From positions 163,370,001-163,434,000 of the forward strand of contig OZ024741.1 in the NCBI GenBank assembly GCA_964016885.1: a stretch of 64,000 bases of DNA. The letters run 5' to 3'. Both the position numbers and the translations under genes were made by a program. The DNA is from Eledone cirrhosa (lineage: Eukaryota). How positions within the stretch are numbered: the first letter of the stretch is position 1; each line of letters opens with the position of its first letter. The notes under the pieces were generated by a model. It made no database searches and was not told the origin of the DNA. It worked only from the letters and a program-made list of their open reading frames with translations. Below, piece by piece: positions 13,881 through 59,000 of the stretch.

Positions 13881-14098
13881 TCCTTTGTCAGTGTTGAACA
13901 AAAGGGCAACGATGGTTGCTAAACACTGTACGGCTTAATTCGGGATGTTTGTTTACAAACAAACCGAGCATTATAATAAATGCTCGGTAAATTCATATGT
14001 ACATATATATATATGTGCATTTATGTATATATATACATACTACTGTACGTCTGTATACATATATGTATGTACGTAAACATACTTATATATATATATAA

Positions 14099-14180
<82 letters not shown>

Positions 14181-19407: not shown

Positions 19408-19410
<3 letters not shown>
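16632..19410 (-). mobile_element. R4/Dong-like non-LTR retrotransposon family 1, 3' part (RT + CCHC + REL), frameshifted
   Basis: KSPGKD, NYRPITCLPT, WIDYKK, GIFQGDSLSPLLF, HLFYMDDLKL, CRVC..ETIDHVISMC, RPDI, KYKDL, IPVVVGALG; (TAA)n at 3' end 16577-16631. Confidence 0.92.
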
Positions 19411-19448
<38 letters not shown>

Positions 19449-19449
19449 G

Positions 19450-21935: not shown

Positions 21936-22899
21936 TTCTTTTTTGTTGTTTTTTAAATTGTTATTATCATGAGTGGTTCCTTAATGTGAGCATTGTGTGG
22001 CTTAAGAATGAAGTTGCCTGTTATTGTTGTTGGCTATGTCGGTGGTAGTGCTGGGGCTTTTTCTATTGTTGGTGGTGAAGGGGGAGCCAGCAGTGCCATA
22101 GTCGTTGACGTTTGACCGAGACACTAAGTCAGTCTATTTATATATTTTGCTAGCCTCTTCCTTGTCTAGTGATACCGCCACCTTCCCCTTTCTTAAGTTA
22201 ACAGAAGGTAGTGGGGGAATAGTGGTGGTAGCAATGAAGGAGTGGTTTCGGCGGTGATGGGATAGTGGTAGCAATGATGGAGTGGTGGCGGCGCTGACTA
22301 TAGTGATCGCGTTGTCGTTACTGAGTTTTGTTGAATAGACTGTAGTAGTATGCGTTTGTTTGATCTGTGTATCTATGCGGTTTGTCGCGTATGTTTAATA
22401 TATGTGTTGACATATTTTCTTAATATTTGAATTAAACATTTTGAGAAAACTTGAGATACAATAATAGTAATTATTATTATTATTATGCAGGGATAGATGG
22501 TGGTGTTGTTGAAATTGCCGTTATCTGGCTGTTGTATTTAGTGTACACATAGGGGTGATGGGATAGGTGGTGTATCTAGTTTCTGGTGTTGGTGAAATTG
22601 CTGTTATTTGGCTGTTCTATATAGTGTAGACAGAGGGGGTTTTCTTCCATTTATAACCATTTTCTTTTTTGAATATAAAATGTATAATACAAAATTGAAT
22701 ATTTGAGCGATATAACAGGATAATATGGATCCGAATTTTCTGAAAGCTGAGTCTGGTGCTTTGTGTCTCATTTGTACTAAGAATTGTTATATCACAATTG
22801 TTTTAAATATGTTAAAAATCAAAAACTTACGGGAGCCATTTCATAATGTTCTATCCACCACGTGCGTCTTCTTCCCTTCTTCTTCTTATTATTATTACT

Positions 22900-27647: not shown

Positions 27648-27674
27648 CATTATTATTATTATTATTATTATTAT

Positions 27675-27752
27675 CCCTTACGGGGTCGATAAAATAAAGT
27701 AGCAGTAATGCACTGGGTAATTGCTGGCCTTGTGACTAAAGTAGAATCAATT
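27675..27752 (+). mobile_element. SINE 3' fragment between the Tx1 and Dong tails
   Basis: Matches the SINE core and tail at 42180-42258. Confidence 0.75.
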
Positions 27753-27762
27753 ATTATTATTA

Positions 27763-30700
27763 TTCTTTGAGTCTCAGTCATTGATGTTAGTTAACTGGAA
27801 AGTTTGTTGAAATGAATATCAAGCCATTACCTGCAGCCTCATATTCAGGACGTATCGGAGGGTTCTTGCTTTTCCCAGCAAGCATGCCTTTTGAAGCGTT
27901 CCAAAAAGCGTGAAGAGGCCAATTTTCTTTAACCATCCCTGGAAACTTTTTGAGATAGTACCTAGTGCGCCTATGACAATCGGGACCACTTTGACTTCAT
28001 GGCAGTTCCAAATCCTTTTTACCTCCCACTTTAAGTCCTGGTATCGGTTAATTTTCTCCCTCTCCTTCTCTTGCACTCTCGTGTCGAATGGGCAGGCCAC
28101 ATCCACAATCAGGCACGATCTTTTTTCTTTGTCCACAACCACCAGGTCAGGTCTATTGTGTTCCAGTTTCTTGTCCGTCTGTATCCTAAAATCCCACAGC
28201 ACCTTCACCTGATCGTTTTCTATCACCGACTCTGGCTTATGCTCATACCACTTCTTAGAATGTGGTAAATTGTTTACTTTGCATAGGTGCCAGTGGATCA
28301 CCCTGCCCATCACATTACGTCTCCAGCCCTTATAGTGAGTCTGGGCTAGGTGTTTACACTCGGATACAATGTGAGCCACAGTCTCCTCTCTCTCTCTCCA
28401 CAGATCCTGCACAGTGGGCTAGCCTCCTCCTTGTAAATATGGTGTTTCAACCACTTCGTTTTGAGGGCCTGCTCTTGCGCAGCCATTAACATTCCTTCTG
28501 TAGCCTTTTTAAGGTCTCCTCTTTTCAACCAGTTCCATGTCTGTGGATCTCTGAATTCAGTTTTCTCAAAGAAGGTACTATGAAGGGATTTTTCATGAAG
28601 GCTACTCTTTCTCCTTGTTGTTATTTCCTCCTTGGACATCCCCTGGTCTATTGTCCTCTCCTTCAGTACAGTTCTGAGCATTGGCTCCTTACTATCAGTC
28701 ACGTATTTGTGTAGGTTGTTTTTCTCCATCTGAATACAGTCATCTATGCTGATAAGACCTCTTCCACCTTCAGATCTCCTTAAGTAGAGTCTATCGACAT
28801 CACTCCTCTTGTGGAACATGTTGTAGATAGTCAATAGCTTCCTAGTCTTCCTATCCATTTCTTTTTGTTCAGCAACATTCCATCTCAGAATTCCTGCACT
28901 GTACCTAATAATAAACACAACTCGGGAATTTACTGTACTTATGGCATTCCTACTGTTCAGATGTGACTTTAATACGCTCCTTACTCTCCGAATGTATTCA
29001 GTTCTTATCAATTCCTTCATTTTTTTGTTCTTGATGTCATCAGCCTCCAGAACACCCAAATACTTGTATCCTTCTTCAGTGTCAATTTCCTTTATCATCT
29101 CACCTGTTGGTACCTGGATTCCGTTACTTCTACTCAATTTACCCCTCTTCATCACAAGGACTCCACACTTACTAATATAAAATTGCATACATATATCATT
29201 GCTGAAAATACGGACAGTGTCAACAAGCACATCCAACTCCTTCTCACTCTTCCCCAAGAGCATAAGATCGTCCATGAAGAGGAGGTGATTGAAGGTAAGC
29301 TCTGCCTTTCCCAACTTGTATCCTGCTCTCACTTTTCACAGTATAATGGTCAGGAGCATCAGGGCAAGGACAAACAACAGAGGGAGGGGACAGACTATCT
29401 CCCTGGAAGATACCTCTCTTGATCTTCACGCCTCCCAAGGATTCTCCAGCTGATGTTAACTCTGTTTCCCAGGACTTCATACTTTTGCCCAACAACTGTC
29501 TGATGTTATCTGCCACCCTGAAGATCTCTAGGCTTTTGGTGATCCAAGAACGAGGCACCATGTCAAACGCCTTTTTGTAGTCTATCCATCCCATGGCAAG
29601 ACCAGTGTGTCTCCTCTTGCAATTCCTCTATTACCATCTTATCAATAAGTAACTGGTCCTTTGTACCACGGGACTTCTTTCGGCATCCTTTCTGTTCGTC
29701 CGGTAACAAGTTGTTTGTGTGGAGGTGATGGTAGATTTCCTCAGACATAATGCTTGTCAACAGTTTCCACATTACGGACAGACATGTGATAGGTCTATAG
29801 TTGGTAGCATCATTACCCTTGATTCTGTCTTTCATTATCAGAACTGTGGTACCTTTTGTCAACCACTCCGGTACCTCACCTGACATCAAGCAGTCATTGA
29901 ACATGGTTGTCAGTTTCGGGTGGAGGGATGTTATATTTTTAATCCAATACCCCGGCACACCATCTGGGCCTGGTGATCTCCAGTTGGTTAGTTTTTCAAC
30001 TGTGATACTCAAATCAGTTTGTTGGTGTGCCTGTTCACTAATCTCCTTCTGTACTGTCTCAATCCACACTGCCTGGTCATTATGTTTAACATCCTGCTCC
30101 CATATTCCTCTCCAGAATGTTTTAGTTTGTTCCGCCTCGGGGATCAAGTCGTTGCCTCTTTCTTTCCCTTCAAGCTGTCCAAACAACATCTTCTGGTTGT
30201 TGTCAAACATGCGGTTCTGTCTATACTGACTGACTCTGCTCTCGTATCGCTTAATTTTTGCACTCTTTGCTACAATGCTTTGCTTCAGTTCCTCTATGAT
30301 AATATTTAGCTTTCTACCTCCTAGTTTTGTACTTTATTTCCAGTCTATTTTTAGTGTCTATGTTTTTTAGTGTCCCATTCCTTAGGGACTCAAGCTTTCC
30401 AATGTCATTTCTCATTTCCCTGATTTGACCACTCAGTCGTTTCTTCCACCAAGGCTCTGATCTTTCTTGTTTGTTGTTTCCTCTCGCTTTTATACCAAGT
30501 AATTTCCTCACCGTATTTGCTGTTGCTTTGAGGATATTGTTGCACTGGTGGAGGTTCCTCGCCTCAAGGTATGGGATGACTTTGTTTACCTTAGCTGTTG
30601 TTTCTTTTAACTTTTTCCTGTCTACAAATCTTAGGTTCATAGGTTTCCCACTATCATTGTTCAATTCATGTACCACTAAGTTTAGGTATCAACCAAATCT

Positions 30701-31290
30701 TGTCCTAGCCCGTCAGCATTCATCTCCTCAATGACCGTATCTCTGTTCCAGGTATTATTTATTTCAGCATTCAAATCATTGTCTGCTTCGGATGATTCCT
30801 CCGTTCTCTCAACCTCTTCACCTTCATTTCCCACTGGCTCGTTTTCTTGGCATACTCCACTCTCCATTTCCAAGCTAATCTCTCTGCTCAGTTCCTCCAG
30901 TTCCAGCTCGCTTATCCACCCATGTTTTCTTATTACCCGAGCCTGCCCGGTCAATTTTTGTTCATCTAATTTAAATAGACTAATCTCGTTCCAGATGTTA
31001 TGCATCCGTTTCCTATAGCCTTTCTCCTTGGGGTTACTCTTCAGGTAACATTGCATAACAGTTCTATTCAATTCTTTCGTCCAGTTGGTTCTGGTCCCTT
31101 TCCTTCTTCTTCTTCCTCCGACACCAGCAGTATTTAGTTGACAGCCAGGTCCCTGCTGCTGAGCCAGGAAGCACCTGCTGGGTGAGAGTCTGTCACATGA
31201 CATTCTAGTCTCTACTTCACCGTTATTCGAACTGTTTAGATTCGACATTTAAACACTCTTATCGAGGATTGGTGAATGTATGGTTACATA
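27763..31290 (-). mobile_element. R4/Dong-like family 2, near full length, frameshifted
   Basis: ORF start MSNLNSS at 31248; WTKELN..VMQCY, WRSPGPDG, NYRPITCL, WIDYKKAFD, GIFQGDSLSP, HLLFMDDL, CRICG, NRPDLVVVD, DVACP; (TAA)n 3' end. Confidence 0.93.
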
Positions 31291-33943: not shown

Positions 33944-34511
33944 CTTGCATATCGAGTGAGTTAATCGGCCGGGCGCACCGAAAACGATAAATGGAAAAGA
34001 TGAAACGAAATTTCATTTATCATTCTTAGTACGGCTGTTACTTAAATCCATACGTACATATATATGTGTGCATGTATGTATATATATACATACTACTGTA
34101 CGTCTGTATACATACTTATATTTATGGATATTAACGGCTACTCAACCATTAATATGCACAAGGAAAGTATATACTTTCAGACGTTCAATCATCTGGCAGG
34201 AAGGTATACGGTGCTGACGATAGCTAATAAGCTTGAAACTAGTACATCGTTCCTTTGTCAGTGTTGTACAAAAGGGCAACGATGGTTGCTAAACACTGTA
34301 CGGCTTAATTCGGGATGTTTGTTTACAAACAAACCGAGCATTATAATAAATGGTCAGTAAATCCATACGTACATATATATATCTGTGCATGTATGTATAT
34401 ATATATACATACTACTGTACGTCTGTATACATATATGTATGTACGTATACATACTTATATTTAAGTAACAGCCGTACTAAGAATGAGAAATGAAATTTCG
34501 TTTCATTTTTT

Positions 34512-36108: not shown

Positions 36109-36152
<44 letters not shown>

Positions 36153-36367
36153 TAAGTTAAAGTGTACATCTACATATGTATACGGAAGTATTAGTATGCA
36201 TATAAATACACACATGTATACATATGTACATGTACTCAGCTTTTCACTAGACACTTTACAGTGAGTGTCAGCTAGTCTGTATGTAACCACACAGGCGGAC
36301 CGGGTTTTAGAGTCATACGAGTTTTCAAGGAAACACATTTCCTCTATTCTCCAGAGGGCCAGACAGG

Positions 36368-36412
36368 AATATTGGACTAGTTTCGATGTTATTACATCTC
36401 ATCAGCAATATT
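36368..36412 (-). ncRNA. Minimal type I hammerhead ribozyme (family A)
   Basis: rc: AATATTG-CTGATGA-GATGT AATA ACATC-GAAA-CTAG-TC-CAATATT. Confidence 0.92.
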
Positions 36413-36836
36413 TACCCATCTTCCGGCTTCTCTGGAGAATTGTAAAAGCACATATCGTTATATGCTTTTTCTATGAAAATTAGTAGTGGGTAGACTAATT
36501 TGCATAGAACGTGAGTCATTGTACGCACCGGTTCAGCGGAAACGATAAAAACAAATAACGAAACGAAATTAAATTTCGTTTCGCTTCTAACTCACTTTTG
36601 TATGACTGACGCTTAAACAATTAAGTTAAAGTGTACATCTACATATGTATACGGAAGTATTAGTATGCATATAAATACACACATGTATACATATGTACAT
36701 GTACTCAGCTTTTCACTAGACACTTTACAGTGAGTGTCAGCTAGTCTGTATGTAACCACACAGGCGGACCGGGTTTTAGAGTCATACGAGTTTTCAAGGA
36801 AACACATTTCCTCTATTCTCCAGAGGGCCAGACAGG

Positions 36837-36881
36837 AATATTGGACTAGTTTCGATGTTATTACATCTCATCAGCAATATT
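36837..36881 (-). ncRNA. Minimal type I hammerhead ribozyme (family A)
   Basis: Identical to 36368-36412, offset +469. Confidence 0.92.
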
Positions 36882-37305
36882 TACCCATCTTCCGGCTTCT
36901 CTGGAGAATTGTAAAAGCACATATCGTTATATGCTTTTTCTATGAAAATTAGTAGTGGGTAGACTAATTTGCATAGAACGTGAGTCATTGTACGCACCGG
37001 TTCAGCGGAAACGATAAAAACAAATAACGAAACGAAATTAAATTTCGTTTCGCTTCTAACTCACTTTTGTATGACTGACGCTTAAACAATTAAGTTAAAG
37101 TGTACATCTACATATGTATACGGAAGTATTAGTATGCATATAAATATACACATGTATACATATGTACATGTACTCAGCTTTTCACTAGACACTTTACAGT
37201 GAGTGTCAGCTAGTCTGTATGTAACCACACAGGCGGACCGGGTTTTAGAGTCATACGAGTTTTCAAGGAAACACATTTCCTCTATTCTCCAGAGGGCCAG
37301 ACAGG

Positions 37306-37350
37306 AATATTGGACTAGTTTCGATGTTATTACATCTCATCAGCAATATT
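37306..37350 (-). ncRNA. Minimal type I hammerhead ribozyme (family A)
   Basis: Identical to 36368-36412, offset +938. Confidence 0.92.
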
Positions 37351-37652
37351 TACCCATCTTCCGGCTTCTCTGGAGAATACATGTGTGTATTTATATGCAT
37401 ACTAATACTTCCGTATACATATGTAGATGTACACTTTAACTTAATTGTTTAAGCGTCAGTCATACAAAAGTGAGTTAGAAGCGAAACGAAATTTAATTTC
37501 GTTTCGTTATTTGTTTTTATCGTTTCCGCTGAACCGGTGCGTACAATGACTCACGTTCTATGCAAATTAGTCTACCCACTACTAATTTTCATAGAAAAAG
37601 CATATAACGATATGTGCTTTTACAATTCTCCAGAGAAGCCGGAAGATGGGTA

Positions 37653-37697
37653 AATATTGCTGATGAGATGTAATAACATCGAAACTAGTCCAATATT
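37653..37697 (+). ncRNA. Minimal type I hammerhead ribozyme (family A, inverted copy)
   Basis: AATATTG-CTGATGA-GATGT AATA ACATC-GAAA-CTAG-TC-CAATATT; GUC cleavage predicted after 37690. Confidence 0.92.
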
Positions 37698-37982
37698 CCT
37701 GTCTGGCCCTCTGGAGAATAGAGGAAATGTGTTTCCTTGAAAACTCGTATGACTCTAAAACCCGGTCCGCCTGTGTGGTTACATACAGACTAGCTGACAC
37801 TCACTGTAAAGTGTCTAGTGAAAAGCTGAGTACATGTACATATGTATACATGTGTGTATTTATATGCATACTAATACTTCCGTATACATATGTAGATGTA
37901 CACTTTAACTTAATTGTTTAAGCGTCAGTCATACAAAAGTGAGTTAGAAGCGAAACGAAATTTAATTTCGTTTCGTTATTTG

Positions 37983-38056
<74 letters not shown>

Positions 38057-38089
38057 CAAATGGAAACTATATTTATAAAACCATATTTA

Positions 38090-38150
38090 TTTCATTATAC
38101 ATATTTCAAGAACACCAAAGCAAATTATGGTGCGCTTTCATCAGATAAAA
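38090..38150 (-). ncRNA. Type I hammerhead ribozyme in PLE pseudo-LTR
   Basis: rc: TTTTAT-CTGATGA-AAGCGCACCA..TGGTGTTCTT-GAAA-T(ATGT)A-TA-ATGAAA. Confidence 0.85.
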
Positions 38151-38595
38151 TATAATATAGATCAGTTTTATAAACAAATATTGACATACCCTTAAAGAAT
38201 TCAACCATGTCGGTTGGAAGCTCCCAGATAGTGGGATTACTAATTTTATTATTGGTCTATTATGCAAATTAGTGTCGGAAAGGTATAAATCCCATACATT
38301 TAAATTAAGCCGTTGGAATAGGGAAAAAAGAAAAGGAAAAAGAAAAAGAAAGAACGAAAGAAAAACAAAAGACAAAAAAGAGAAAGAGAGAAAACCCTAA
38401 GTGAGAGAGTGTTGTATTAACGTAATTTTATGAGATGATGAAGCGAAAAGATAAATATATATTGGATGAATTACGCGAAGTAAATAAAGCGTGGATAAAT
38501 AAATAAATAAATAGTAATAACCGGAGAATTGTATCTAATGTTTAAATTTGATTAAATTGTTGAGATCTATAAATTAAAAATTAAAAATTAAAAGA

Positions 38596-38676
<81 letters not shown>

Positions 38677-39769
38677 CTATCAAAATATATGTTATTATTA
38701 CATAACCTTACATACATTTATTATTAATCATCAACCAACAATTAACTATTAAATTTTTCAATTAACAATAAAACTCATAAGAAATAGCAAAATATATGTT
38801 TAAAATATAGGAATGTTCAGAGATTTTACCGAAGAAAAATCTCTTAGTAATAGCAATACAGCGTGATGGAAAATTTATTGATTTATTTGTAATTTAGATA
38901 CCTCTAAGGATTATATGCTATAAAAGGTAAGATGATAAAAAAAAGTTAAGATTATAAGAGAACCTTATATTATTTTATAGTAAGTTATAATTTTATATAT
39001 TTTATATATTTTATAAATCCACCTGTTATACAGTTGTGACTGTTAAAATATAAGTTTGTTTACTATAACGTCTTAATGTTTAAAGTTTTTCATAAGAATA
39101 TATCTAAAGCATAAACCGTAAGATACCTTTTATATGAGTTCTTTCATAAAATGTATTCAAATTATACATTTCGATATATATATATATATATACACAGATA
39201 TACATATGCATATATACGCACACATAGACACATACATATATATAAATATACATATATATACACACATACATATACACATATACATATAAATATATATATA
39301 TATTACAATTTTTAAAAAAGATATAATTATATAATTTTAAAAGGAATTATATTTTTAAGCAATGTAATTTTTAAGCAATATAATTCTAAAAATATGTAAT
39401 TTTTAAGCAATATAATTTTAAAAATATATATAAGAATATATAGAAAAAACACAGTATAAAATATGAATTATAATTTTTTATAATTTTTTATATCCATCAG
39501 AGGAATTAACAATAAACCTTTTTTTTAGAAACTTTCAGTATGTTTATCTTAATTTTTTATACCCACTTTTAAAAAAAACTTTCAGTATTTTTTTCTAGAA
39601 GAGTTTTCAAGGAAAAATTTTAAGGAAAAAAATTTTTAAGGAAAAAAATTTTTTTAAGGAAAAGATTTTTAGGAATAATGTTTTATTCATTTAAGAGAGT
39701 TTGTGGCAGTCGTATGAAGGAATCTAATGATTTATCGATAGGTTTAATAAGATGAATTATATATTACAT

Positions 39770-40767
39770 TTAAAATTTATATTTAAACGTTGAATTTAAT
39801 CTATGTTTGCAGTAACTGAAAAGATTGTTCCATAAATTCACAGGATTTTTGCTCTTTAATATAAAGAATATTTCCTCTTTAATATAAATAATATTTCCTC
39901 TATACAAAGAGCACAATTTTCCGAAGAGGCGTTAAATGGAGGAGCTTTGGAAATAATATTCCAAAGTAAATAATAGTTAATGTTCTTTAATGTTAGGTCC
40001 CATAGCTAGATAGAGAAGTTGAAGATTTTTTATTTATATTCGTAAAAGAGAATTTATGGTTATTAAAGCGGGATTTAAAGTCTGTGGAAGTAGAACCTAC
40101 ATAATTAAATGAATTTAAATTAGTTTTTACATTACAATTATATACTATATTTTTAGCTAAACAATTGTTATTTAGCGGACAGTTAGATTTATTTCTACAG
40201 TTACATTTATCAAAATTCAAGTTACTAGGAGCCGTATTATTAAATTGGATATTGCTGGGGTTGTTAATGGTATTCTGGTTAGGTTTTAAGTTTCTATTAT
40301 TAATTCTATTAATATTCTGCGCTAAATTACTGGTGGTTGAATAAGTCAATTTTATAGTATGTCTATTAAATATTGAGTAATATCTAGGGAAGCATTTGTC
40401 AAGAGCTTTAAAGAATAGTTTAGCAATAGGATTTTTAATATTTAATGAGAAAGGAGGAGCGAACCATAATATATTCCGAGTTCTATTTCTTTTTTTTGCT
40501 TTTCGAATTATTGTAAGGTTTTCTATTATAATTGTTAAAATTATGGTTATTTGTTATATTATTATTATCAATATATTTAATTTTATTACTATATCCAGCT
40601 CTACCTAACGCTTCGTTGTAATATTGTGCTTTATCATCAAAAATATTCTTATTAGCTGAAATTCTAGAAATGCGTTGCTGTACAGAATTTACTATTTCTA
40701 CTTTAAGATTAAGGTAATTAAAAAATTGTATAATTTCTTTTCTTTTCCTATTTAATTCACAGTTATT
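39770..40767 (-). pseudogene. PLE RT-thumb, linker and GIY-YIG remnant
   Basis: ILWFAPPFS, TYSTTSNL, CNCRNKSNCPLNNNCL, NIVY, YVGSTSTDFKSRFNNH, SYCKHR; frameshifted. Confidence 0.9.
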
Positions 40768-41005
40768 ATCCTTAGAGGTATCTAAATTACAAATAAATCA
40801 ATAAATTTTCCATCACGCTGTATTGCTATTACTAAGAAGAGATTTTTCTTCGGTAAAATCTCTAAACATTCCTATATTTTAAACATATATTTTGCTATTT
40901 CTTAAAAGTTTTATTGTTAATTGAAAAATTTAATAGTTAATTGTTGGTTGATGATTAATAATGAATTTATGTAAGGTTATGTAATAATAACATATATTTT
41001 GATAG

Positions 41006-41106
<101 letters not shown>

Positions 41107-41710
41107 TCTTTTAATTATATATTCTTTTACTAATATATAGATCTCAATTTTTAATTTTTTATTTTTTATTTTTTATTTTTTATTTTTTATTTTTTATTTT
41201 TTATTTTTTATTTTTTATTTTTTATTTTTTATTTTTTATTTTTTATTTTTTATTTTTTATTTTTTATTTTTTATTTTTTATTTTTTATTTATAGATCTCA
41301 ACAATTTAATCAAATTTAAACATTAGATACAATTCTCCGGTTATTACTATTTATTTATTTATTTATCCACGCTCTATTTACTTCGCGTAATTCATCCAAT
41401 ATATATTTATCTTTTCACTTCATCATCTCATAAAATTACGTTAATACAACACTCTCTCACTTAGGGTTTTCTCTCTTTCTCTTTTTTGTCTTTTGTTTTT
41501 CTTTCGTTCTTTCTTTTTCTTTTTCCTTTTCTTTTTTCCCTATTCCAACGGCTTAATTTAAATGTATGGGATTTAAACCTTTCCGACACTAATTTGCATA
41601 ATAGACCAATAATAAAATTAGTAACACCACTATCCGGGAGCTTCCAACCAACATGATTGCATTCTTTAAGGGTATGTCAATATTTGTTTATAAAACTGAT
41701 CTATATTATA

Positions 41711-41771
41711 TTTTATCTGATGAAAGCGCACCATAATTTGCTTTGGTGTCCTTGAAATATGTATAATGAAA
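41711..41771 (+). ncRNA. Type I hammerhead ribozyme in inverted pseudo-LTR
   Basis: TTTTAT-CTGATGA-AAGCGCACCA TAATTTGCTT TGGTGTCCTT-GAAA-T(ATGT)A-TA-ATGAAA. Confidence 0.85.
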
Positions 41772-41939
41772 TAAATATGGTTTTATAAATATAGTTTCCA
41801 TTTATTAATATATTGTATTTTTACTTCAAAAATTTGTTGAGTGCTTTATATCAGTTATAAAAATATTTGCTTGTTGTATCCCAACAAATTAAATATAACT
41901 TCTACATATAATATATATATATATATACACAGACATACA

Positions 41940-44633: not shown

Positions 44634-45122
44634 TCCATAGCTTAATCAATATAAATGTCTCCACAGCATACTGTACATATTGCACTCATGCGACAACCTA
44701 GATTGCCATTACAATTTTACATCTTTGAAATACTTCCCTTTGTTATACTACATTTTAATAGAGAAGTCTTTATCATGCTATATTAGGAAAGATATTTTCA
44801 AACTCGTCCAAGTGCCTGACGACTAGGTCACAAATTTCACCACACTTACAATCTGGGGAGATGGTGAAAAGTGGGCCATGAAACCTTACAGACACACAGA
44901 CTAACACACACACACACACACACACATATGTATATATTTCATTGGTATTAATCCAGCTTAGCTTGCCAAAACATTAGCGTCAATAAAATTGAAGACATTA
45001 TTACATTTCGCGCTGTGATATGTCTTTTCTACTAATTGACAATAACTCTTTAATAATGAATGTCAGCTAAAGGTTTCTTTCCTGCACCCATGTATCGCAG
45101 TTGATTATTAGTTTTTAACGTG

Positions 45123-45184
<62 letters not shown>

Positions 45185-46116: not shown

Positions 46117-46679
46117 CTTAGAGTTTAGACTCAATGGGGTCATTTACAATCATTTCAGCTCTAGGAATCGCTTCTGAGCAGTATAAATTAATATTTGATG
46201 AACATTTACATGTTTTAGTTGCAATTGATTAATAAGATCGCTAGAGTGAAACATCTTAATTCAACAACATAAAGTCTGCCTGTACGATCTAAAAAAATAA
46301 TAAATCAATACTCACAGACTCATATGGGCAAAAAGCCTTGGTACCTAGACACGTTTAAAATTCAAAATACAAACTTTTTCCGCAGATCGGTCAGAACTTC
46401 AAACTTCAAACATGTTTCACAAAGGATGGTATAATAGTAAAATAATTAACTAATTAGCAGTGAGTTAATCAACTTTTTCTGTGTTTATCAATAGGTACCC
46501 AGATAAAATAAAATAACTCTACCTCAGAAAAATATCTAAGGTCTGGTTAGCGTAGCGAAAATACATGAGGTTTTGCACACGGCTTATTCACTCTAGCGAT
46601 CTTATTAGTCAATTGCAACTAAAACATGTAAATGTTCATCAAATATTAATTTATATATATATATATATACATATATATT

Positions 46680-46724
46680 ATATATCTGTTTTTAACATGC
46701 CATATATTATATATATATACATAT

Positions 46725-46756
<32 letters not shown>

Positions 46757-46770
46757 CAGTTTTTAACGTG

Positions 46771-46829
<59 letters not shown>

Positions 46830-46843
46830 CAGTTTTTAACGTG

Positions 46844-46888
<45 letters not shown>

Positions 46889-47022
46889 CAGTTTTTAACG
46901 TGCTATATATATATATATTATATATCAGTTTTTAACGTGCTATATATATATATATATATTATATATCAGTTTTTAACGTGCTATATATATTATATATCAG
47001 TTTTTAACGTGCTATATATATA
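46680..47022. repeat. Minisatellite TATCAGTTTTTAACGTGC-(TA)variable, 6-7 copies
   Basis: Copies near 46686 (degenerate), 46753, 46827, 46886, 46923, 46963 and 46995; the motif core also occurs at 45110. Confidence 0.9.
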
Positions 47023-47149
47023 TGTAGGAGGTGAGTTTTATTGTAGTACAATAAAGCAATGCAGATATCGGATAAGAAGCACTCTACAGTTTGTGGGACT
47101 GGAGTATGCATAATATAAGATCAAAAGATGGTTAAAGGAGTTCCATATA

Positions 47150-47216
47150 TTTTATTATGCGCATTTCAAAAACAAACATCATCAAGCAATAATATTTGTG
47201 TTTTCATCAGATAAAA
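47150..47216 (-). ncRNA. Type I hammerhead ribozyme in PLE 3' end
   Basis: Reverse complement of 53366-53432. Confidence 0.9.
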
Positions 47217-48644
47217 CAGGAGAACATGATATGAAGGCTAAAAAAACACTTGTTGATAGTGCAGTTTTAAATCAACATATGAAAAGTGGTTTTAGATTGA
47301 TGTGTGATATTGGGAAAAATATTTTATTTAGAGAGGGGGGGGGGGAGAAGGATGAAAAGGGAAGGAGATGAGAGGGAGAGATGGGTGATAGAGAGAAAGA
47401 GATAGTTTTTATAACTGAGAGGAGATATATTTTTTACATAGAGGGGTTGAAAACCGTTGGAAGATACTGTATAAATTAAAAATTTTGAAAATTAACGAAG
47501 GGAGGATATGTGCGAGGAAAAAATATTTTATTTAGGGAGGGTGGGGTGGAAAGGATGAAAAAAAAGGGGGGAGGAGATGAGAGTGAAGGTGGAGAGGGAG
47601 AGATGGGTGATAGAGAGAAAGAGATAGTTTTTATAACTGAGAAAAAGATATATTGTTTTAATATAGAGAGGTTGGGAACCGTTGGAAGATAATGTATAAA
47701 TTAAAGGAATTTGAAAATTAACGAAGGGAAATTATGTATGAAGATAGAGAGAAAAAAATAATAATTGTGGGTGAATATTCTAACGTCAAAAGAAGAAATG
47801 TATGTATTGTGGCAATTTCAAAATTAGCGAAGAGAAAAATTGTTAAGGTAGAAGGATTTGAGAAGTGTAGAAGGATTTGAGAAAAATAATGTGAAGTTAA
47901 AGTTTGTATATTGAATTGGTATGTATTAATAATGAGTTCGTTGATGGGGAGAAAAAAATAATAATAAATTAAGGATGAAATTGAGATTAAAAAGATTTAT
48001 GATAGAGAGAAAAAATAATAATGATTGCGGATGAATATTCAAAATGTCAAAAACAAATGTTATTATTTTACGAAAAGATAGAATGAGGGTAATGAGTAAA
48101 CAAGTATTATAGAGTGTATAATGCCCTTTAAAGTAAGGTAGATGGGTATATTTTAAAGAGGTGTATGTATATGTGCCTTTGAGAAAAGATTCTAAATTGA
48201 TAAAGAATTGAATATTAACTGTATACTTTGTGAAAAGTTCTATGGAATTTATGCAGGCAGATAGAAAAATTGTTAAGGTAGAAGGATTTGAGAAGTGTAG
48301 AAGGATTTGAGAAAAATAATGTGAAGTTAAAGTTTGTATATTGAATTGGTATGTATTAATAATGAGTTCGTTGATGGGGAGAAAAAAATAATAATAAATT
48401 AAGGATGAAATTGAGATTAAAAAGATTTATGATAGAGAGAAAAAATAATAATGATTGCGGATGAATATTCAAAATGTCAAAAACAAATGTTATTATTTTA
48501 CGAGAAGATAGAATGAGGGTAATGAGTAAACAAGTATTATAGAGTGTATAATGCCCTTTAAAGTAAGGTAGATGGGTATATTTTAAAGAGGTGTATGTAT
48601 ATGTGCCTTTGAGAAAAGATTCTAAATTGATAAAGAATTGAATA

Positions 48645-50561
48645 TTAACTGTATACTTTGTGAAAAGTTCTATGGAATTTATGCAGGCAGATAGAAAACA
48701 AATCTGAGCGTCTATTTATTATAGATTCTAGGTTAGAGATAATGGTAAATTTTTCATTTAGGCAGAGATTACAGATTTTAGATAGAGAGCTGTTCAAGTA
48801 TGAGGATGCAGAAGAAATCTTTTTCCAAAAGATGTTATATTTAATGTTTTTGTCTTTTAAGGACCATATGAGTTCTGAGAGAGCAGTGTTAGTTCTTTTA
48901 AGTTTGTATTTGAAAGATGAATGATGATTATAGAGACGAGCTTTAAAAGAGGTGGAAGTGGAGCCAAAATAGGTGAAGGAATTGGTGCTAGTTATAATTT
49001 TACATTCATAAATTAAGTTTTTATCGAGGCAATGGTTGTTGAGAGGACATTTATTTTTAATGCGGCAGTTGCAATTAGAGAGATTATTAATGAGTGATCT
49101 AGTGTTATCTATAGAAGGAATTGGATTGGAGAAGTTGTTTGCGATAGGAATAATAGGAATAATAGTTTCTTGATTTAGAGTTGGATTATGAACATTTAGC
49201 GAAGTTGTGTTTGACGTTGTATTTGGGTTTACAGAAGTTAGCCTAGGGTTTACAATGACGTCGGGAGTACTATTACTGTTATTATGAAATTCAATATTGG
49301 AAGGAAGAGATTTAGTATTTAATATTTTGTTGTTGTGTTTAGAGATGATGTTGGAAATATTGGAGGATGTAGAATACGAAAATTTGATGGTGTGTTTGTT
49401 AAATATTTTACTATAGATATGTGAGGGAGGGAAGCATTTATTTAAGGCACTAAAAAATAATTTAGGAATATTGTTATTAATAGAGATGGAGAAAGGAGCA
49501 TTATACCAGATTATGTTTTTGTATCTAGGTCTTTTATTAAAATTATTGGAATGGTCAAGATTAATTATTCTACTGTAAGTTTTCCTAGAATTTGTTTCTT
49601 TATTATATTTGATTTTATCTGGATAGCCGGCTTTAGAAAGTGCGTTATTATAGTAATTGGCGTTAGCATCAAAGATGTTTTTATTAGAAGATATGTTAGA
49701 TATTCTATTTCCAATATTATTAACTATAGCATTCTTGATATTGGTAGGATGGTTAGATTTAAAGTTAACATAATTAAGATTCTCATTGTTTTTATGGTAA
49801 GGGTAATATAGGCCAGTGTCAAGATTAAGAGATACATCCAAGAAATTAGCTAGTTTGATACTATTATCAAATTCAATTTTTAGGTTATGTTGGTTAAAGA
49901 GATTACGTATATTGTTCTTAATAATATTAAGTTTAACTATATTGCAATTTAGGATAGTAAAGAGTCCATCGTCACGATAAATTCCACCGCGAAGTTGAGG
50001 AATTTTCCGACTCAAAGAGTTCAAAATGAAGATACCAATTAAATCAGTCAATTGGGATGAATCGGATGCTCCCATTGTGATGTCGAAGTTGTTAGAGGTA
50101 TCGGCTCTGGTCCAATATTCGTTGTTGAACTCTAGGATGGTTTTACGTGCGGTGAGGATGATGTGAAGTTCATCTGTGGTGATGTCAGAATATTTAAGTG
50201 CGAAAGATAGAGCATTATTGAGAAGTGAAGGCGAAATGGAGGAATAGTAGCTGGCAATATCGAATTGAATAAATTTTAGTTTGTTTTTATTATCCAATTT
50301 GTTGAACCAGCCAATCACTTCAGAAGTACCAAACCATAAATTTAGGTTTAAAGAAGAGCAATTAGAACTAACCTGTGGGATAATCCTATCCAAGATGGCT
50401 TTACTAACAACCCCCAGTAAAACCGCACGTAAAACCGCACGTAAAACCATCCTAGAGTTCAACAACGAATATTGGACCAGAGCCGATACCTCTAACAACT
50501 TCGACATCACAATGGAAGCATCCGATTCATCCCAATTGACTGATTTAATTGGTATCTTCAT
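48645..50561 (-). CDS. PLE reverse transcriptase + C-terminal GIY-YIG endonuclease (Hydra-clade-like), 5'-truncated; genuine coding starts at about 50417
   Basis: FDIASYYSSI (motif A), ITMGASDS (B), YRDDG (C), FLDV, KSNHP, WYNAPFS, CNCRIKNKCPLNNHCL linker, LIY..YFGSTSTSFKARLYNH, CNLCLNEK, ICLH; the first ~48 aa are read from the inverted arm. Confidence 0.93.
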   Translation of the reverse strand: MKIPIKSVNWDESDASIVMSKLLEVSALVQYSLLNSRMVLRAVLRAVLLGVVSKAILDRIIPQVSSNCSSLNLNLWFGTSEVIGWFNKLDNKNKLKFIQFDIASYYSSISPSLLNNALSFALKYSDITTDELHIILTARKTILEFNNEYWTRADTSNNFDITMGASDSSQLTDLIGIFILNSLSRKIPQLRGGIYRDDGLFTILNCNIVKLNIIKNNIRNLFNQHNLKIEFDNSIKLANFLDVSLNLDTGLYYPYHKNNENLNYVNFKSNHPTNIKNAIVNNIGNRISNISSNKNIFDANANYYNNALSKAGYPDKIKYNKETNSRKTYSRIINLDHSNNFNKRPRYKNIIWYNAPFSISINNNIPKLFFSALNKCFPPSHIYSKIFNKHTIKFSYSTSSNISNIISKHNNKILNTKSLPSNIEFHNNSNSTPDVIVNPRLTSVNPNTTSNTTSLNVHNPTLNQETIIPIIPIANNFSNPIPSIDNTRSLINNLSNCNCRIKNKCPLNNHCLDKNLIYECKIITSTNSFTYFGSTSTSFKARLYNHHSSFKYKLKRTNTALSELIWSLKDKNIKYNIFWKKISSASSYLNSSLSKICNLCLNEKFTIISNLESIINRRSDLFSICLHKFHRTFHKVYS

Positions 50562-51942
50562 TTTGAACTCTTTGAGTCGGAAAATTCCTCAACTTCGCGG
50601 TGGAATTTATCGTGACGATGGACTCTTTACTATCCTAAATTGCAATATAGTTAAACTTAATATTATTAAGAACAATATACGTAATCTCTTTAACCAACAT
50701 AACCTAAAAATTGAATTTGATAATAGTATCAAACTAGCTAATTTCTTGGATGTATCTCTTAATCTTGACACTGGCCTATATTACCCTTACCATAAAAACA
50801 ATGAGAATCTTAATTATGTTAACTTTAAATCTAACCATCCTACCAATATCAAGAATGCTATAGTTAATAATATTGGAAATAGAATATCTAACATATCTTC
50901 TAATAAAAACATCTTTGATGCTAACGCCAATTACTATAATAACGCACTTTCTAAAGCCGGCTATCCAGATAAAATCAAATATAATAAAGAAACAAATTCT
51001 AGGAAAACTTACAGTAGAATAATTAATCTTGACCATTCCAATAATTTTAATAAAAGACCTAGATACAAAAACATAATCTGGTATAATGCTCCTTTCTCCA
51101 TCTCTATTAATAACAATATTCCTAAATTATTTTTTAGTGCCTTAAATAAATGCTTCCCTCCCTCACATATCTATAGTAAAATATTTAACAAACACACCAT
51201 CAAATTTTCGTATTCTACATCCTCCAATATTTCCAACATCATCTCTAAACACAACAACAAAATATTAAATACTAAATCTCTTCCTTCCAATATTGAATTT
51301 CATAATAACAGTAATAGTACTCCCGACGTCATTGTAAACCCTAGGCTAACTTCTGTAAACCCAAATACAACGTCAAACACAACTTCGCTAAATGTTCATA
51401 ATCCAACTCTAAATCAAGAAACTATTATTCCTATTATTCCTATCGCAAACAACTTCTCCAATCCAATTCCTTCTATAGATAACACTAGATCACTCATTAA
51501 TAATCTCTCTAATTGCAACTGCCGCATTAAAAATAAATGTCCTCTCAACAACCATTGCCTCGATAAAAACTTAATTTATGAATGTAAAATTATAACTAGC
51601 ACCAATTCCTTCACCTATTTTGGCTCCACTTCCACCTCTTTTAAAGCTCGTCTCTATAATCATCATTCATCTTTCAAATACAAACTTAAAAGAACTAACA
51701 CTGCTCTCTCAGAACTCATATGGTCCTTAAAAGACAAAAACATTAAATATAACATCTTTTGGAAAAAGATTTCTTCTGCATCCTCATACTTGAACAGCTC
51801 TCTATCTAAAATCTGTAATCTCTGCCTAAATGAAAAATTTACCATTATCTCTAACCTAGAATCTATAATAAATAGACGCTCAGATTTGTTTTCTATCTGC
51901 CTGCATAAATTCCATAGAACTTTTCACAAAGTATACAGTTAA
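50281..51942 (+). CDS. Inverted duplicate of the PLE RT/GIY-YIG ORF, further 5'-truncated (genuine from 50434)
   Basis: Matches the minus ORF from TARKTILEF onward, with MGASDS>MEASDS; lacks RT motif A. Confidence 0.88.
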   Translation: MFLLSNLLNQPITSEVPNHKFRFKEEQLELTCGIILSKMALLTTPSKTARKTARKTILEFNNEYWTRADTSNNFDITMEASDSSQLTDLIGIFILNSLSRKIPQLRGGIYRDDGLFTILNCNIVKLNIIKNNIRNLFNQHNLKIEFDNSIKLANFLDVSLNLDTGLYYPYHKNNENLNYVNFKSNHPTNIKNAIVNNIGNRISNISSNKNIFDANANYYNNALSKAGYPDKIKYNKETNSRKTYSRIINLDHSNNFNKRPRYKNIIWYNAPFSISINNNIPKLFFSALNKCFPPSHIYSKIFNKHTIKFSYSTSSNISNIISKHNNKILNTKSLPSNIEFHNNSNSTPDVIVNPRLTSVNPNTTSNTTSLNVHNPTLNQETIIPIIPIANNFSNPIPSIDNTRSLINNLSNCNCRIKNKCPLNNHCLDKNLIYECKIITSTNSFTYFGSTSTSFKARLYNHHSSFKYKLKRTNTALSELIWSLKDKNIKYNIFWKKISSASSYLNSSLSKICNLCLNEKFTIISNLESIINRRSDLFSICLHKFHRTFHKVYS

Positions 51943-53365
51943 TATTCAATTCTTTATCAATTTAGAATCTTTTCTCAAAGGCACATATACATACACCTCT
52001 TTAAAATATACCCATCTACCTTACTTTAAAGGGCATTATACACTCTATAATACTTGTTTACTCATTACCCTCATTCTATCTTCTCGTAAAATAATAACAT
52101 TTGTTTTTGACATTTTGAATATTCATCCGCAATCATTATTATTTTTTCTCTCTATCATAAATCTTTTTAATCTCAATTTCATCCTTAATTTATTATTATT
52201 TTTTTCTCCCCATCAACGAACTCATTATTAATACATACCAATTCAATATACAAACTTTAACTTCACATTATTTTTCTCAAATCCTTCTACCCTTCTCAAA
52301 TCCTTCTACCTTAACAATTTTTCTATCTGCCTGCATAAATTCCATAGAATTTTCACAAAGTATACAGTTAATATCCAATTCTTTATCAATTTAGAATCTT
52401 TTCTCAAAGGCACATATACATACACCTCTTTATAATATACCCATCTACCTTACTTTAAAGGGCATTATACACTCTATAATACTTGTTTACTCATTACCCT
52501 CATTCTATCTTCTCGTAAAATAATAACATTTGTTTTTGACATTTTGAATATTCATCCGCAATCATTATTATTTTTTCTCTCTATCATAAATCTTTTTAAT
52601 CTCAATTTCATCCTTAATTTATTATTTTTTTCTCCCCATCAACGAACTCATTATTAATACATACCAATTCAATATACAAACTTTAACTTCACATTATTTT
52701 TCTCAAATCCTTCTACACTTCTCAAATCCTTCTACCTTAACAATTTTTCTCTTCGCTAATTTTGAAATTGCCACAATACATACATTTCTTCTTTTGACGT
52801 TAGAATATTCACCCACAATTATTATTTTTTTCTCTCTATCTTCATACATAATTTCCCTTCGTTAATTTTCAAATTCCTTTAATTTATACATTATCTTCCA
52901 ACGGTTCCCAACCTCTCTATATTAAAACAATATATCTTTTTCTCAGTTATAAAAACTATCTCTTTCTCTCTATCACCCATCTCTCCCTCTCCACCTTCAC
53001 TCTCATCTCCTCCCCCCTTTTTTTTCATCCTTTCCACCCCACCCTCCCTAAATAAAATATTTTTTCCTCGCACATATCCTCCCTTCGTTAATTTTCAAAA
53101 TTTTTAATTTATACAGTATCTTCCAACGGTTTTCAACCCCTCTATGTAAAAAATATATCTCCTCTCAGTTATAAAAACTATCTCTTTCTCTCTATCACCC
53201 ATCTCTCCCTCTCATCTCCTTCCCTTTTCATCCTTCTCCCCCCCCCCTCTCTAAATAAAATATTTTTCCCAATATCACACATCAATCTAAAACCACTTTT
53301 CATATGTTGATTTAAAACTGCACTATCAACAAGTGTTTTTTTAGCCTTCATATCATGTTCTCCTG

Positions 53366-53432
53366 TTTTATCTGATGAAAACACAAATATTATTGCTTGA
53401 TGATGTTTGTTTTTGAAATGCGCATAATAAAA
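53366..53432 (+). ncRNA. Type I hammerhead ribozyme in PLE 3' end
   Basis: TTTTAT-CTGATGA-AAAC ACAAATATTAT TGCTTG ATGATGTTTGT TTTT-GAAA-T(GCGC)A-TA-ATAAAA; 11-bp inner stem II, palindromic stem III, AUA cleavage predicted after 53426. Confidence 0.9.
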
Positions 53433-53471
53433 TATATGGAACTCCTTTAACCATCTTTTGATCTTATATTA

Positions 53472-53555
<84 letters not shown>

Positions 53556-53624
53556 TATGAAGAGAGAAGAAACATTTAGATATAATTAGTAATAAAATGT
53601 ATCATACCTAAACTGTTTCTAAAT

Positions 53625-53712
53625 TCCTCGACTACGTAGTTTCGTGGCATAAACAAAAACAATATATCAAAGATATAGAGTCCTTGCGAGGTCTGCCGAC
53701 TTATCAAGAGGA
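53625..53712 (-). ncRNA. Variant hammerhead ribozyme (U3-A8 core, extended stem II), family D
   Basis: rc: TCCTC-TTGATAA-GTCGGCA...TGCCAC-GAAA-CTACGTAG-TC-GAGGA. Confidence 0.78.
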
Positions 53713-54215
53713 TACCTCATTTTACTAGTCTCAAGAACGCGTCTACACGACGTGAGAAACAATCCCAAAAGGCGGAGGGGGAGATAGTCACGCGATATAA
53801 CGGTCGAGAAACAGAGCTAAGCTTCCTATAACCACGAAGAAAATACCACGGAGGCGGAGGGGGTATTCATATCGAGGCCGTAGAAGAGGTAGTGAAGAAG
53901 GCGAGAAGTATGAGTAATGGAAGCTTTCCAGTTGTCCCCACACCTCAAGGATTGCTCGACCAGAGGGAGTTAATAATATATTTAGAAACACACAGATACA
54001 TGCGGACGCACACATATATACATGAATGCATCCGCACCCAACTGTGAGTTAAGGGTGCCAACTTCACCGATGTTGCTCAATGAATGACCGGGACAGACCA
54101 ATTCAGTTTGAACTAGACTGAACCAGTATCAGAGTTAAAAATACATTATGAAGAGAGAAGAAACATTTAGATATAATTAGTAATAAAATGTATCATACCT
54201 AAACTGTTTCTAAAT

Positions 54216-54303
54216 TCCTCGACTACGTAGTTTCGTGGCATAAACAAAAACAATATATCAAAGATATAGAGTCCTTGCGAGGTCTGCCGACTTATCAAGA
54301 GGA
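54216..54303 (-). ncRNA. Variant hammerhead ribozyme (family D, second unit)
   Basis: Identical to 53625-53712, offset +591. Confidence 0.78.
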
Positions 54304-54775
54304 TACCTCATTTTACTAGTCTCAAGAACGCGTCTACACGACGTGAGAAACAATCCCAAAAGGCGGAGGGGGAGATAGTCACGCGATATAACGGTCGAGA
54401 AACAGAGCTAAGCCTCCTATAACCACGAAGAAAATACCACGGAGGCGGAGGGGGTATTCATATCGAGGCCGTAGAAGAGGTAGTGAAGAAGGCGAGAAGT
54501 ATGAGTAATGGAAGCTTTCCAGTTGTCCCCACACCTCAAGGATTGCTCGACCAGAGGGAGTTATTAATATATTTAGAAACATACAGATACATGCGGACGC
54601 ACACATATATACATGAATGCATCCGCACCCAACTGTGAGTTAAGGGTGCCAACTTCACCGATGTTGCTCAATGAATGACCGGGACAGACCAATTCAGTTT
54701 GAACTAGACTGAACCAGTATCAGAGTTAAAAATACATTATGAAGAGAGAAGAAACATTTAGATATAATTAGTAAT

Positions 54776-54816
<41 letters not shown>

Positions 54817-54817
54817 C

Positions 54818-54888
<71 letters not shown>

Positions 54889-54894
<6 letters not shown>

Positions 54895-55171
54895 ACGTAC
54901 AATCATATATGTGTACAGACGTACAGTAGTATGTATATATATACATATATGCACACATATATATATGTACGTATGTGTTTACCGAACATTTATTATAATG
55001 TGCGGTTTGTTTGTAAATAAACAGCCCGAATTACACCGTACAGTGCTCGGCAACCATCGTCGCCCATTTGTTCAACACTGACACAGGAACGATGTACTAG
55101 TTTCAAGCTTATTAGCTATCGTCTGCATCGTATACCTTTCTGTCATACTTTCAAACGTTCAATCATCTGAC
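54889..55171 (-). mobile_element. Diverged family B copy with mutated HHR core (55089-55131, CAGACGA) and a short inverted 5' piece
   Basis: Homologous to 13235-13490; 55145-55171 matches 13801-13827 in the opposite orientation. Confidence 0.8.
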
Positions 55172-57774: not shown

Positions 57775-59000
57775 AGTAATAGATTTATAGTGGTAAAAGG
57801 AATTAAGTTTCATGTGAATACAAGAAGAGAAAAACTCCGATTTCCTATTTAGTAATACCTATTTAGAGTAAACTATGGCGTGAAACTCAAGCAGGCAAAG
57901 GTTACAAGTTTTGCTCGGGGGTGGGGGGGGGAGATTTAGTCACCAACCTCAAATTGAGTGTATAATCTATACCATCATATTTTAAATAATGAATAAATGA
58001 ATATATTTAGATAGGGAGGTACCATTTTTAAGCCTATTATATCTAAAAGTATAATTGTGGGAGTTGAATCTAGTTTTAAAAGCTGTAGAAGTAGAGCCCA
58101 CATATGTCTTAGTAGAGGTTGTTGTTACAACATCACACGCATAAACAATATTCTTCGTGAGGCAAATTTAAAGGGCAATTTCCACTCCTTCTACAATTAT
58201 AATTAAGGCTAGTGTCGTTATTCATACCTTGGGATGGCCTATTGTTAAAACCCACTTGACCTGGAATGTGTTCATCCGATGTGTTGTTAGTGAGCTGCGG
58301 TGCCACACTAGCCAATGTGTTAGGTTGCTGTTGGTTATTCACAGATTTAATATCTTCAAAACCTACACTAATTTTCTGATTATTAGTACGTGCCAGGTGG
58401 AAAGCTAGGTTCGGTGTAGTGGAGTACGATAATTTAATTGTGTTTTTATTGAATATACTATGGTATCTGCTGCCCGGCGGGAAGTTCTTTTCTAGGATTA
58501 AGAAGAATGGTTTGGGAATGTTAGTTAAGACCTCAGAGTTGTATGGTGGGTTAAAAAAGGTGTTCATTCTTCTATTTTTTCTATTTTTCCCCACTACAGT
58601 CCGGTTAACACCAGAACTACTACTCTCCCCTTCACCTATATACTTGCCGTGAAACTCTCACATTATATTGGTCAATACACCCACCTGATACTCTACCATG
58701 AGTATAGTTTCCAAATCTCGACACACTTCCATTAGTGTAACCAGTAGGAGTATTTGGAGGATGCATATTAGGGCCATTCAGTCTGGGCCGGCTGAACTAA
58801 TCACTATATGGGTCCTATCTAGAGTTCTATTACTGTTAACATTATAATTATAATTCAAAGACATATTGTGCGTAATAACATTATTATGCCCAGCTGTGGT
58901 GGATTGGGAGTAATATAGTTTATTCTTATAGCCAGACTTAGCTAGTGCCTCGTTATAATAATCCACATTAGAGTTGAAAATATCTTTTCCGCATGATATT
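57775..59000 (-). pseudogene. PLE RT-thumb/GIY-YIG remnant, divergent family
   Basis: YYNEALAKSGYKNKL, FFNPPYNSEVLTNIPK, IFNKNTIKLSYSTTPN, NCRRSGNCPLN, YVGSTSTAFKTRFNSH, TCNLCLLE, LLNRKSEFFSSCIH. Confidence 0.9.

Follow-up and report, generated by a model that had tools for sequence, protein, structure and literature searches.

The window analysed here, a 64,000-nucleotide (64-kb) stretch of Eledone cirrhosa DNA, contains at positions 53551 to 54780 a short tandem array of a 591-nt repeat, every complete unit of which carries a type I hammerhead. This repeat is probably a non-LTR retrozyme, an element whose RNA would be cleaved transiently, closed into a circle, locked by its own tail and copied for more than two rounds into (TA)n by a Penelope-type enzyme. 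The anatomy of the repeat is observed directly, and its cleavage, circularisation and mobilisation are what we infer by analogy with the published descriptions accessible to us of retrozymes and Penelope-linked hammerheads (PMC7229834; PMC4209133; bioRxiv 10.64898/2026.07.22.740005). Each trait of the repeat has a precedent. The combination of a U3-A8 core, a long stem II with a predicted pseudoknot, a dimer-type stem III, a tail predicted to be self-locking and a fixed 3′ end in TA makes it a small system in which to ask how the circles of animal retrozymes escape re-cleavage and whether Penelope-type enzymes mobilise retrozymes.

A 591-nt non-coding tandem repeat between two TA tracts

53551..54780, minus strand: the element in full, a non-coding 591-nt unit repeated in tandem 2.08 times, defined by its periodicity and by its ends in (TA)n
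53465..53552, unstranded: (TA)n tract common to the array and the neighbouring Penelope-like arm
54779..54895, unstranded: (TA)n tract on the other flank of the array

The first-pass annotation of this DNA had proposed a 591-nt tandem monomer at 53551..54780, and the periodicity bears this out: at a period of 591 from 53551, 636 of 640 positions match, while the next best periods match 220. The array, which sits between two TA tracts, consists of two 591-nt units plus 48-49 nt. Its copies differ three times in 639 nt (53823/54414, 53973/54564 and 53991/54582), the fourth period-591 mismatch being the end of the array, and because the copies differ at just these three sites the insertion appears to be young. 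In the sense of the ribozyme the 3′ end lies at about 53551 and the 5′ end at about 54780, both merging into (TA)n. The tract at 53465-53552 was confirmed to be common to the array and to the right arm of the large Penelope-like element beside it, as had been claimed, and within it the array and the Penelope-like arm stand 3′ end against 3′ end. A few bases inside the right-hand TA tract, at 54815-54822, are identical to the 3′ terminus of the array and are possibly an aborted priming event.

The unit is non-coding: its longest stop-free frame on the 591-nt circle is 86 codons, and tblastn of two Penelope proteins against it gave no match with either (2/2 tried). The length of 591 nt falls inside the published range of non-LTR retrozymes, for which unit lengths of 51-972 nt were given in a 2026 survey (bioRxiv 10.64898/2026.07.22.740005) and of 150 to over 1000 nt previously, and it is above that of the invertebrate retrozymes tested, whose units are 170-400 nt (PMC7229834). 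The ribozyme strand of the unit has five runs of at least four T, and no A or B box was found on that strand, which together argue against transcription by Pol III. A tRNA-derived SINE was rejected as a candidate, the unit having no tRNA, A/B box or poly(A) signal.

A type I hammerhead with a U3-A8 core

54216..54303, minus strand: type I hammerhead, the RNA's upstream copy, with U3 at 54298 and A8 at 54293; predicted cut after C17 at 54221
53625..53712, minus strand: type I hammerhead, downstream copy, identical to the first; predicted cut after 53630
54222..54231 (54231-54222 on the RNA), minus strand: 10-nt stem III palindrome ACUACGUAGU, from the predicted fold
54235..54291, minus strand: stem II, an extended arm with no branches that measures 57 nt (G10.1 to C11.1), from the predicted fold
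54305..54309 (other copy 53714-53718), minus strand: GAGGU, predicted pseudoknot strand, one nt 5′ of stem I

Both complete units (2/2) carry the hammerhead on the minus strand. In the copy at 54216-54303, a 5-bp stem I (UCCUC/GAGGA) accompanies the core UUGAUAA and the following GAA, with the G10.1-C11.1 pair at 54291/54235. Three stems surround the core, stem I being open and stem II having 6 bp with G10.1-C11.1, and the core follows the type I hammerhead pattern N3 U4 G5 A6 N7 N8 A9, G12 A13 A14, A15.1-U16.1, H17, with a Watson-Crick 3-8 pair that is U3-A8 in place of C3-G8. A relaxed scan agrees with the earlier proposal that the two departures from the usual core lie at U3 and A8 and restore the 3-8 pair, and stem I, the palindromic stem III and the GUC site were found intact in each copy, as had also been stated. 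Using a descriptor drawn up post hoc, when the motif had already been seen (any Watson-Crick 3-8 pair, stem I of at least 5 bp, palindromic stem III), we obtained eight sites in the real window, two of them U3-A8 and six canonical, versus none in 150 block-shuffled windows. Judged from these features, the motif within 53551-54780 is a genuine type I hammerhead in which U3-A8 restores the 3-8 pair, and the sequence data are consistent with selection on catalysis for the U3-A8 core.

The core swap itself is already published. Natural covariation from C3-G8 to U3-A8 has been described in hammerheads, with activity in vitro credited to earlier work (PMC3088659), and in Schistosoma about 1,300 Penelope-linked U3-A8 motif hits were obtained in 2014 with a descriptor of their own (PMC4209133). 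The first-pass annotation had expected standard searches to miss this motif on account of its core. Rfam does miss it, with no hits at gathering level in the whole window and, at E up to 10 over 53300-54900, a region that includes the canonical hammerhead at 53364, 17 weak hits with no ribozyme among them. The miss is not due to U3-A8, because every canonical-core hammerhead in the window was missed as well.

The palindromic stem III would give 3 bp and a 4-nt loop within a monomer and 10 bp, at -12.9 kcal/mol, between two copies. Stem II had been described as carrying an insert of about 50 nt with sub-hairpins; the predicted fold is instead one unbranched arm spanning 57 nt, in which helices of 6 bp (with a C bulged out), 8 bp and 6 bp are separated in turn by a 6x3 internal loop and a 2x2 loop and the last is closed by a triloop. 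GAGGU is a perfect 5-bp complement of ACCUC, the internal-loop strand, which lies at 54283-54279 and, in the second copy, at 53692-53688. Stem I and this pairing each match at 5/5 positions and the two crossed pairings at 4/5 each; the chance of an equal match in either 12-nt flank is about 2%, a post hoc figure. As a bare duplex, GAGGU/ACCUC is worth about -5.4 kcal/mol, and the competing pairing of GAGGU with the 5′ strand of stem I is worth -3.6 kcal/mol. On these pairing models it is predicted that the internal loop of stem II and the strand upstream of stem I form a pseudoknot, an interaction of stem I with stem II of the kind reported in about 40% of representatives of natural hammerheads (PMC3088659).

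A stable predicted circle with a tail predicted to lock it

53630..54220, minus strand: 591-nt monomer predicted from the two cuts
53551..53629, minus strand: 79-nt 3′ tail, predicted to form a long hairpin

Folds and pair probabilities were obtained with ViennaRNA, whose model has pseudoknot and tertiary terms outside it. In its predicted minimum-energy fold 63% of the 591-nt circle is paired, and the fold is branched rather than rod-like. The circle has a z of -6.2 on the ribozyme strand versus -2.2 on the other strand (60 shuffles each), none of the 60 ribozyme-strand shuffles was as stable, and four control stretches had z of -0.6 to 1.4. By these predictions the unit looks like a structurally constrained RNA.

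The tail hairpin, the base of which is the end of the element, is predicted to capture GAGGA, the 3′ strand of stem I. A mir-268 match in Rfam (29.4 bits against a cut-off of 47) reflects this hairpin only. ViennaRNA puts the probability of stem I near 0 for dimer and circle alike, and in nascent fragments it does not exceed 0.21; every equilibrium fold has stem I outcompeted on both its strands. Folds with an active ribozyme are 5.4-11.7 kcal/mol less stable than the predicted minimum: forcing them costs 5.4-8.0 kcal/mol for one monomeric site and 9.2-11.7 kcal/mol for the double hammerhead. The double hammerhead gains 2.6-4.2 kcal/mol over a fold with two monomeric sites formed together. The ribozyme is thus predicted to be locked by the 79-nt tail.

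In this model the locked fold counts against efficient cutting. By analogy it also matches what the published account accessible to us describes for plant retrozymes, for viroids and for some retrozymes of mussels, whose circles are blocked, unlike those of most animal retrozymes (PMC7229834). The fact that stem I loses on both strands in every equilibrium fold would also be expected of a descendant of a retrozyme or pseudo-LTR whose ribozyme, with its U3-A8 core and competing hairpins, is now inactive and which spreads as a satellite by local duplication. Most tested animal dimers were uncut, with eight of nine Xenopus dimers giving no product (bioRxiv 2026.07.22.740005), Penelope-type minimal hammerheads are reported to cut poorly in vitro (PMC4209133), and unequal crossover can yield two near-identical copies. 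Against such a satellite, the folding is biased to the ribozyme strand.

Copies in other sequencing runs

One period of the array, 53900-54490, was compared with contigs of X1, X4 and X5, which come from three studies with three organism codes and are three of 20 runs listed with the unit (16 studies, 17 organism codes; six of the other 17 have shares under 0.2). No RNA run is among those listed, which has no bearing on expression. In all three contig runs the joint goes back exactly 591. X1 holds 1,413 records with many variants and TA-abutting ends, its contig depth being no measure of copy number, and 11 of its contigs end at 54141 in (AT)n, the terminus of the 3′ end seen in the window. 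X4 consists of a single self-closing contig of 621 letters at a depth of 7.8, and X5 of a single low-depth contig of 577 letters with the exact-591 joint. A second TA-abutting end, at 53976 in four contigs, was given no weight because the sequence there resembles a microsatellite and picks up unrelated matches in X5.

These contigs bear on the idea that an autonomous Penelope-like element, not seen in the window, has the unit as its pseudo-LTR, and that what remains here is a short and partial tandem of it rather than a retrozyme family in its own right. Penelope-like elements as a rule show partial tandems, tails of 30-40 nt and TA targeting (PMC8557442), U3-A8 was first seen in a Penelope element (PMC4209133), and Xenopus retrozymes are described as sisters of pseudo-LTRs (bioRxiv 2026.07.22.740005). 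We nevertheless consider such an origin quite unlikely. The 591-nt unit has no ORF remnant, the share of aligned X1 records continuing into unlike sequence is 0 among the matches listed (there are 92 further loose ends), and X4 closes at 591. No RT/GIY-YIG homology or link to the unit was found within the 64-kb window or among the X1 loose ends listed.

At eight sites the three runs share a majority letter that is not the window's. Both copies in the window have the window letter at all eight, which would follow from one template being copied two times or from local duplication. Agreement of three organism codes at eight sites that differ from the window, together with the single clean self-closing contig of X4, might suggest that an infectious viroid-like circular RNA, passing from host to host, has left an endogenised copy here. 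We regard this as extremely improbable: the ribozyme is on one strand only, the predicted fold is branched and not rod-like, trace DNA from a host in which a repeat is very abundant would yield a single low-depth contig like that of X4, and scans of viral and metagenome sequences returned no relative. The simplest reading of one sequence being shared by X1, X4 and X5 is trace DNA of a host in which the repeat is very abundant. An ambisense viroid-like replicon has ribozymes on both strands and a rod-like fold, and this candidate was rejected on the one-strand ribozyme and branched fold of the repeat. One scan of viral sequences gave a single match, which lacks the stems, and another gave none; a metagenome scan for the motif also gave none. 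A looser metagenome pattern gave at least 120 loci in 7 of the 64 collection parts; among 120 pattern matches scored over 121 loci, 0 combined a stem I of at least 4 bp with a palindromic stem III, and none resembled the 591-nt unit by blastn. No C3-G8 relative of the family was found in the viral and metagenome scans.

At 5% or above, X1, X4 and X5 show no variant at any core position, in the 3-8 pair, in stem I or in the palindrome. None of the 13 substitutions listed from the three contig runs falls inside the 88-nt ribozyme, which has a probability of 0.12 by chance and is not significant, and the sole listed change within the ribozyme is a minor 2-nt insertion in the apical loop of stem II. 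The stretch 54216/54220-54313, made up of the ribozyme and the upstream pseudoknot strand, is all that aligns in divergent low-depth contigs of X1, a statement about extent only; the alignments reach 54312-54313, and two of the contigs have 135 and 71 unaligned letters upstream. The intact core, 3-8 pair, stem I and palindrome, and the precise TA-abutting terminus shared by 11 contigs, are at odds with an inactive satellite, which we judge to be an unlikely explanation of the repeat.

Transitions at strongly paired sites keep the pair in seven of eight cases on the ribozyme strand (background 0.59, P 0.09, not significant) and in three of seven on the strand opposite. The strongly paired sites broken by a variant are 53937 (a transversion, 6%) and 54417 (a transition, 99%). 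Between the window and the other runs, seven of nine transitions are A/G on the ribozyme strand and all seven lie in predicted helices; the P of 0.03 for this excess is one-sided and post hoc, and the changes are unpolarised. CpG is possible at two of the seven A/G sites. Cephalopods edit RNA heavily. A two-state hammerhead switch, activated by the pseudoknot in the nascent RNA and locked by the tail in the circle, with A-to-I edits of the circular RNA written back into DNA, would fit the A/G changes, and we hold it to be decidedly improbable; selection to keep pairs explains these data equally well. If true, the write-back would mean that the action of ADAR on a mobile circRNA has been recorded in DNA, and A8 itself might be an editing switch. 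In a literature search that took in few of the subscription journals, no published study of retrozyme editing was found.

The neighbouring Penelope-like element

47105..53477, unstranded: palindromic, 5′-truncated Hydra-clade-like Penelope element, outside the repeat

A Hydra-like ORF and Penelope fragments lie in the same window as the 591-nt repeat. The ORF of the neighbour (48645-50588, minus strand, a 647-codon frame) is 38% identical to an unnamed protein over 386 residues, has the linker CxCX5C as CNCRIKNKC at residue 506, and has RT motifs like those of Hydra-1_Obim when compared by eye. Each end of the neighbour carries one canonical hammerhead (47148-47218, minus; 53364-53434, plus). 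The CxCX5C linker, C-terminal endonuclease, (TA)n insertion and canonical hammerhead are those of the Hydra clade, in which nearly all families insert in (TA)n (PMC8557442). Pfam gave no hits with the four Penelope-like frames of the window. The neighbour is cut at the hinge and is without roughly the first 200 residues of the Hydra-1_Obim frame; with its N-terminal part missing, this copy cannot itself be the mobiliser. The sequence common to the 591-nt unit and the Penelope arms is at most 13 nt. Judged by its motifs, the neighbour shows that a TA-targeting enzyme family is present in the genome, rather than being the repeat's own mobiliser.

The hammerheads of the neighbour have a 36-nt stem II and a cut after AUA, and lie about 40 nt from the TA tract. 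Given this 36-nt stem II in a canonical hammerhead, long stems II recur among the hammerheads of this genome.

A retrozyme model and its precedents

The retrozyme reading can be laid out as a sequence of steps. A read-through transcript, probably of Pol II, would fold its ribozyme only transiently, with stem I (UCCUC/GAGGA) and the pseudoknot (GAGGU/ACCUC) bringing stems I and II into contact, and two copies may pair through the palindromic stem III into a double hammerhead. Cuts after 54221 and 53630 would release the 591-nt monomer, which a host RtcB-type ligase would close into a circle, both steps being modelled on published retrozymes. The 79-nt tail is predicted to pair with the 3′ strand of stem I and so to lock the circle against re-cleavage. 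A Hydra-clade enzyme would then nick (TA)n, with priming at the AU-rich base of the hairpin, 79 nt past the cut site, and reverse transcription for more than two turns round the circle would leave 2.08 units with no recognisable target duplication. The ends of the element do not lie at the predicted cleavage sites, which is what copying of a circle would produce.

The sequence-level traits of the retrozyme family found here are tandem hammerheads, absence of coding capacity, unit length, a self-paired predicted circle and Penelope-like elements alongside, and none of those examined was contradicted. The repeat is like the metazoan non-LTR retrozymes as published (PMC7229834; bioRxiv 10.64898/2026.07.22.740005) in having tandem units that are non-coding and each contain a type I hammerhead, in its self-paired predicted circle, in having Penelope-like elements alongside and in its dimer-type stem III. 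It is unlike them in its U3-A8 core and its 57-nt stem II with a predicted pseudoknot.

Other hammerhead groups share further traits, according to the accessible descriptions. Like the Cercyon hammerheads of Schistosoma mansoni (PMC4209133), the repeat has U3-A8, type I topology, a short stem I (4-5 bp in Cercyon), a long helix II and a link to Penelope-like elements; they are mostly single motifs with no helix III, whereas the repeat is tandem and non-coding, with a palindromic stem III of 10 nt and a stem II that is much longer. With the Hydra-clade and PLE-X hammerheads (PMC8557442) it shares (TA)n targets, a near-palindromic stem III and a ribozyme near the 3′ end, and the long loop 2 (28-34 nt) of two Selaginella PLE-X entries recalls the long stem II seen here. 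The Hydra-clade and PLE-X cores tabulated in that source all start with C3, unlike the U3 of the repeat, and those elements encode RT and endonuclease, whereas the 591-nt unit is non-coding. Among the natural variants of Perreault et al. 2011 (PMC3088659) there are both U3/A8 covariation and stem I-stem II pseudoknots, and the Aedes repeats have a 10-bp palindromic dimer stem III; in the part of that paper accessible to us U3/A8, pseudoknot and dimer stem III are reported separately, not together in one repeat. No published cephalopod retrozyme was found in literature that included few of the subscription journals. No description of the 591-nt family was found either, and the supplements of the 2011, 2014 and 2020 papers and of the preprint may hold similar motifs.

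Other repeats of the window

A second hammerhead repeat lies at 36148-37989, with a 469-nt unit in 2.6 copies plus an inverted copy, TA flanks, a canonical CUGAUGA core and a 6-nt palindromic stem III. Its predicted circle has z of -11.0 on the ribozyme strand and -7.5 on the other, and it is probably a second retrozyme family. At 38048-41813 there is another inverted-arm Hydra-like Penelope copy, with frames at 39993-40797 (minus strand) containing the CxCX5C linker and with canonical hammerheads at 38088-38152 (minus) and 41709-41773 (plus) that have a 30-nt stem II; a further fragment is at 58133-58657.

A TA-associated repeat family with inverted arms, in which a hammerhead scan found none, occurs at 13336-14149, 34136-34405 and 54820-55158, the last copy adjoining the right side of the array. 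Nested and broken frames of non-LTR retrotransposons, of at least two kinds, occupy 16778-31248, and one of these frames has a homologue in Argonauta hians at 56%, one of four hits and the only one with a species name, a weak pointer to an octopod host. At 46654-47021, (TA)n is interleaved with about nine copies of one motif of about 23 nt, which is also present at 45105-45123; the pattern looks like repeated short additions of a template end, as from a stuttering reverse transcriptase.
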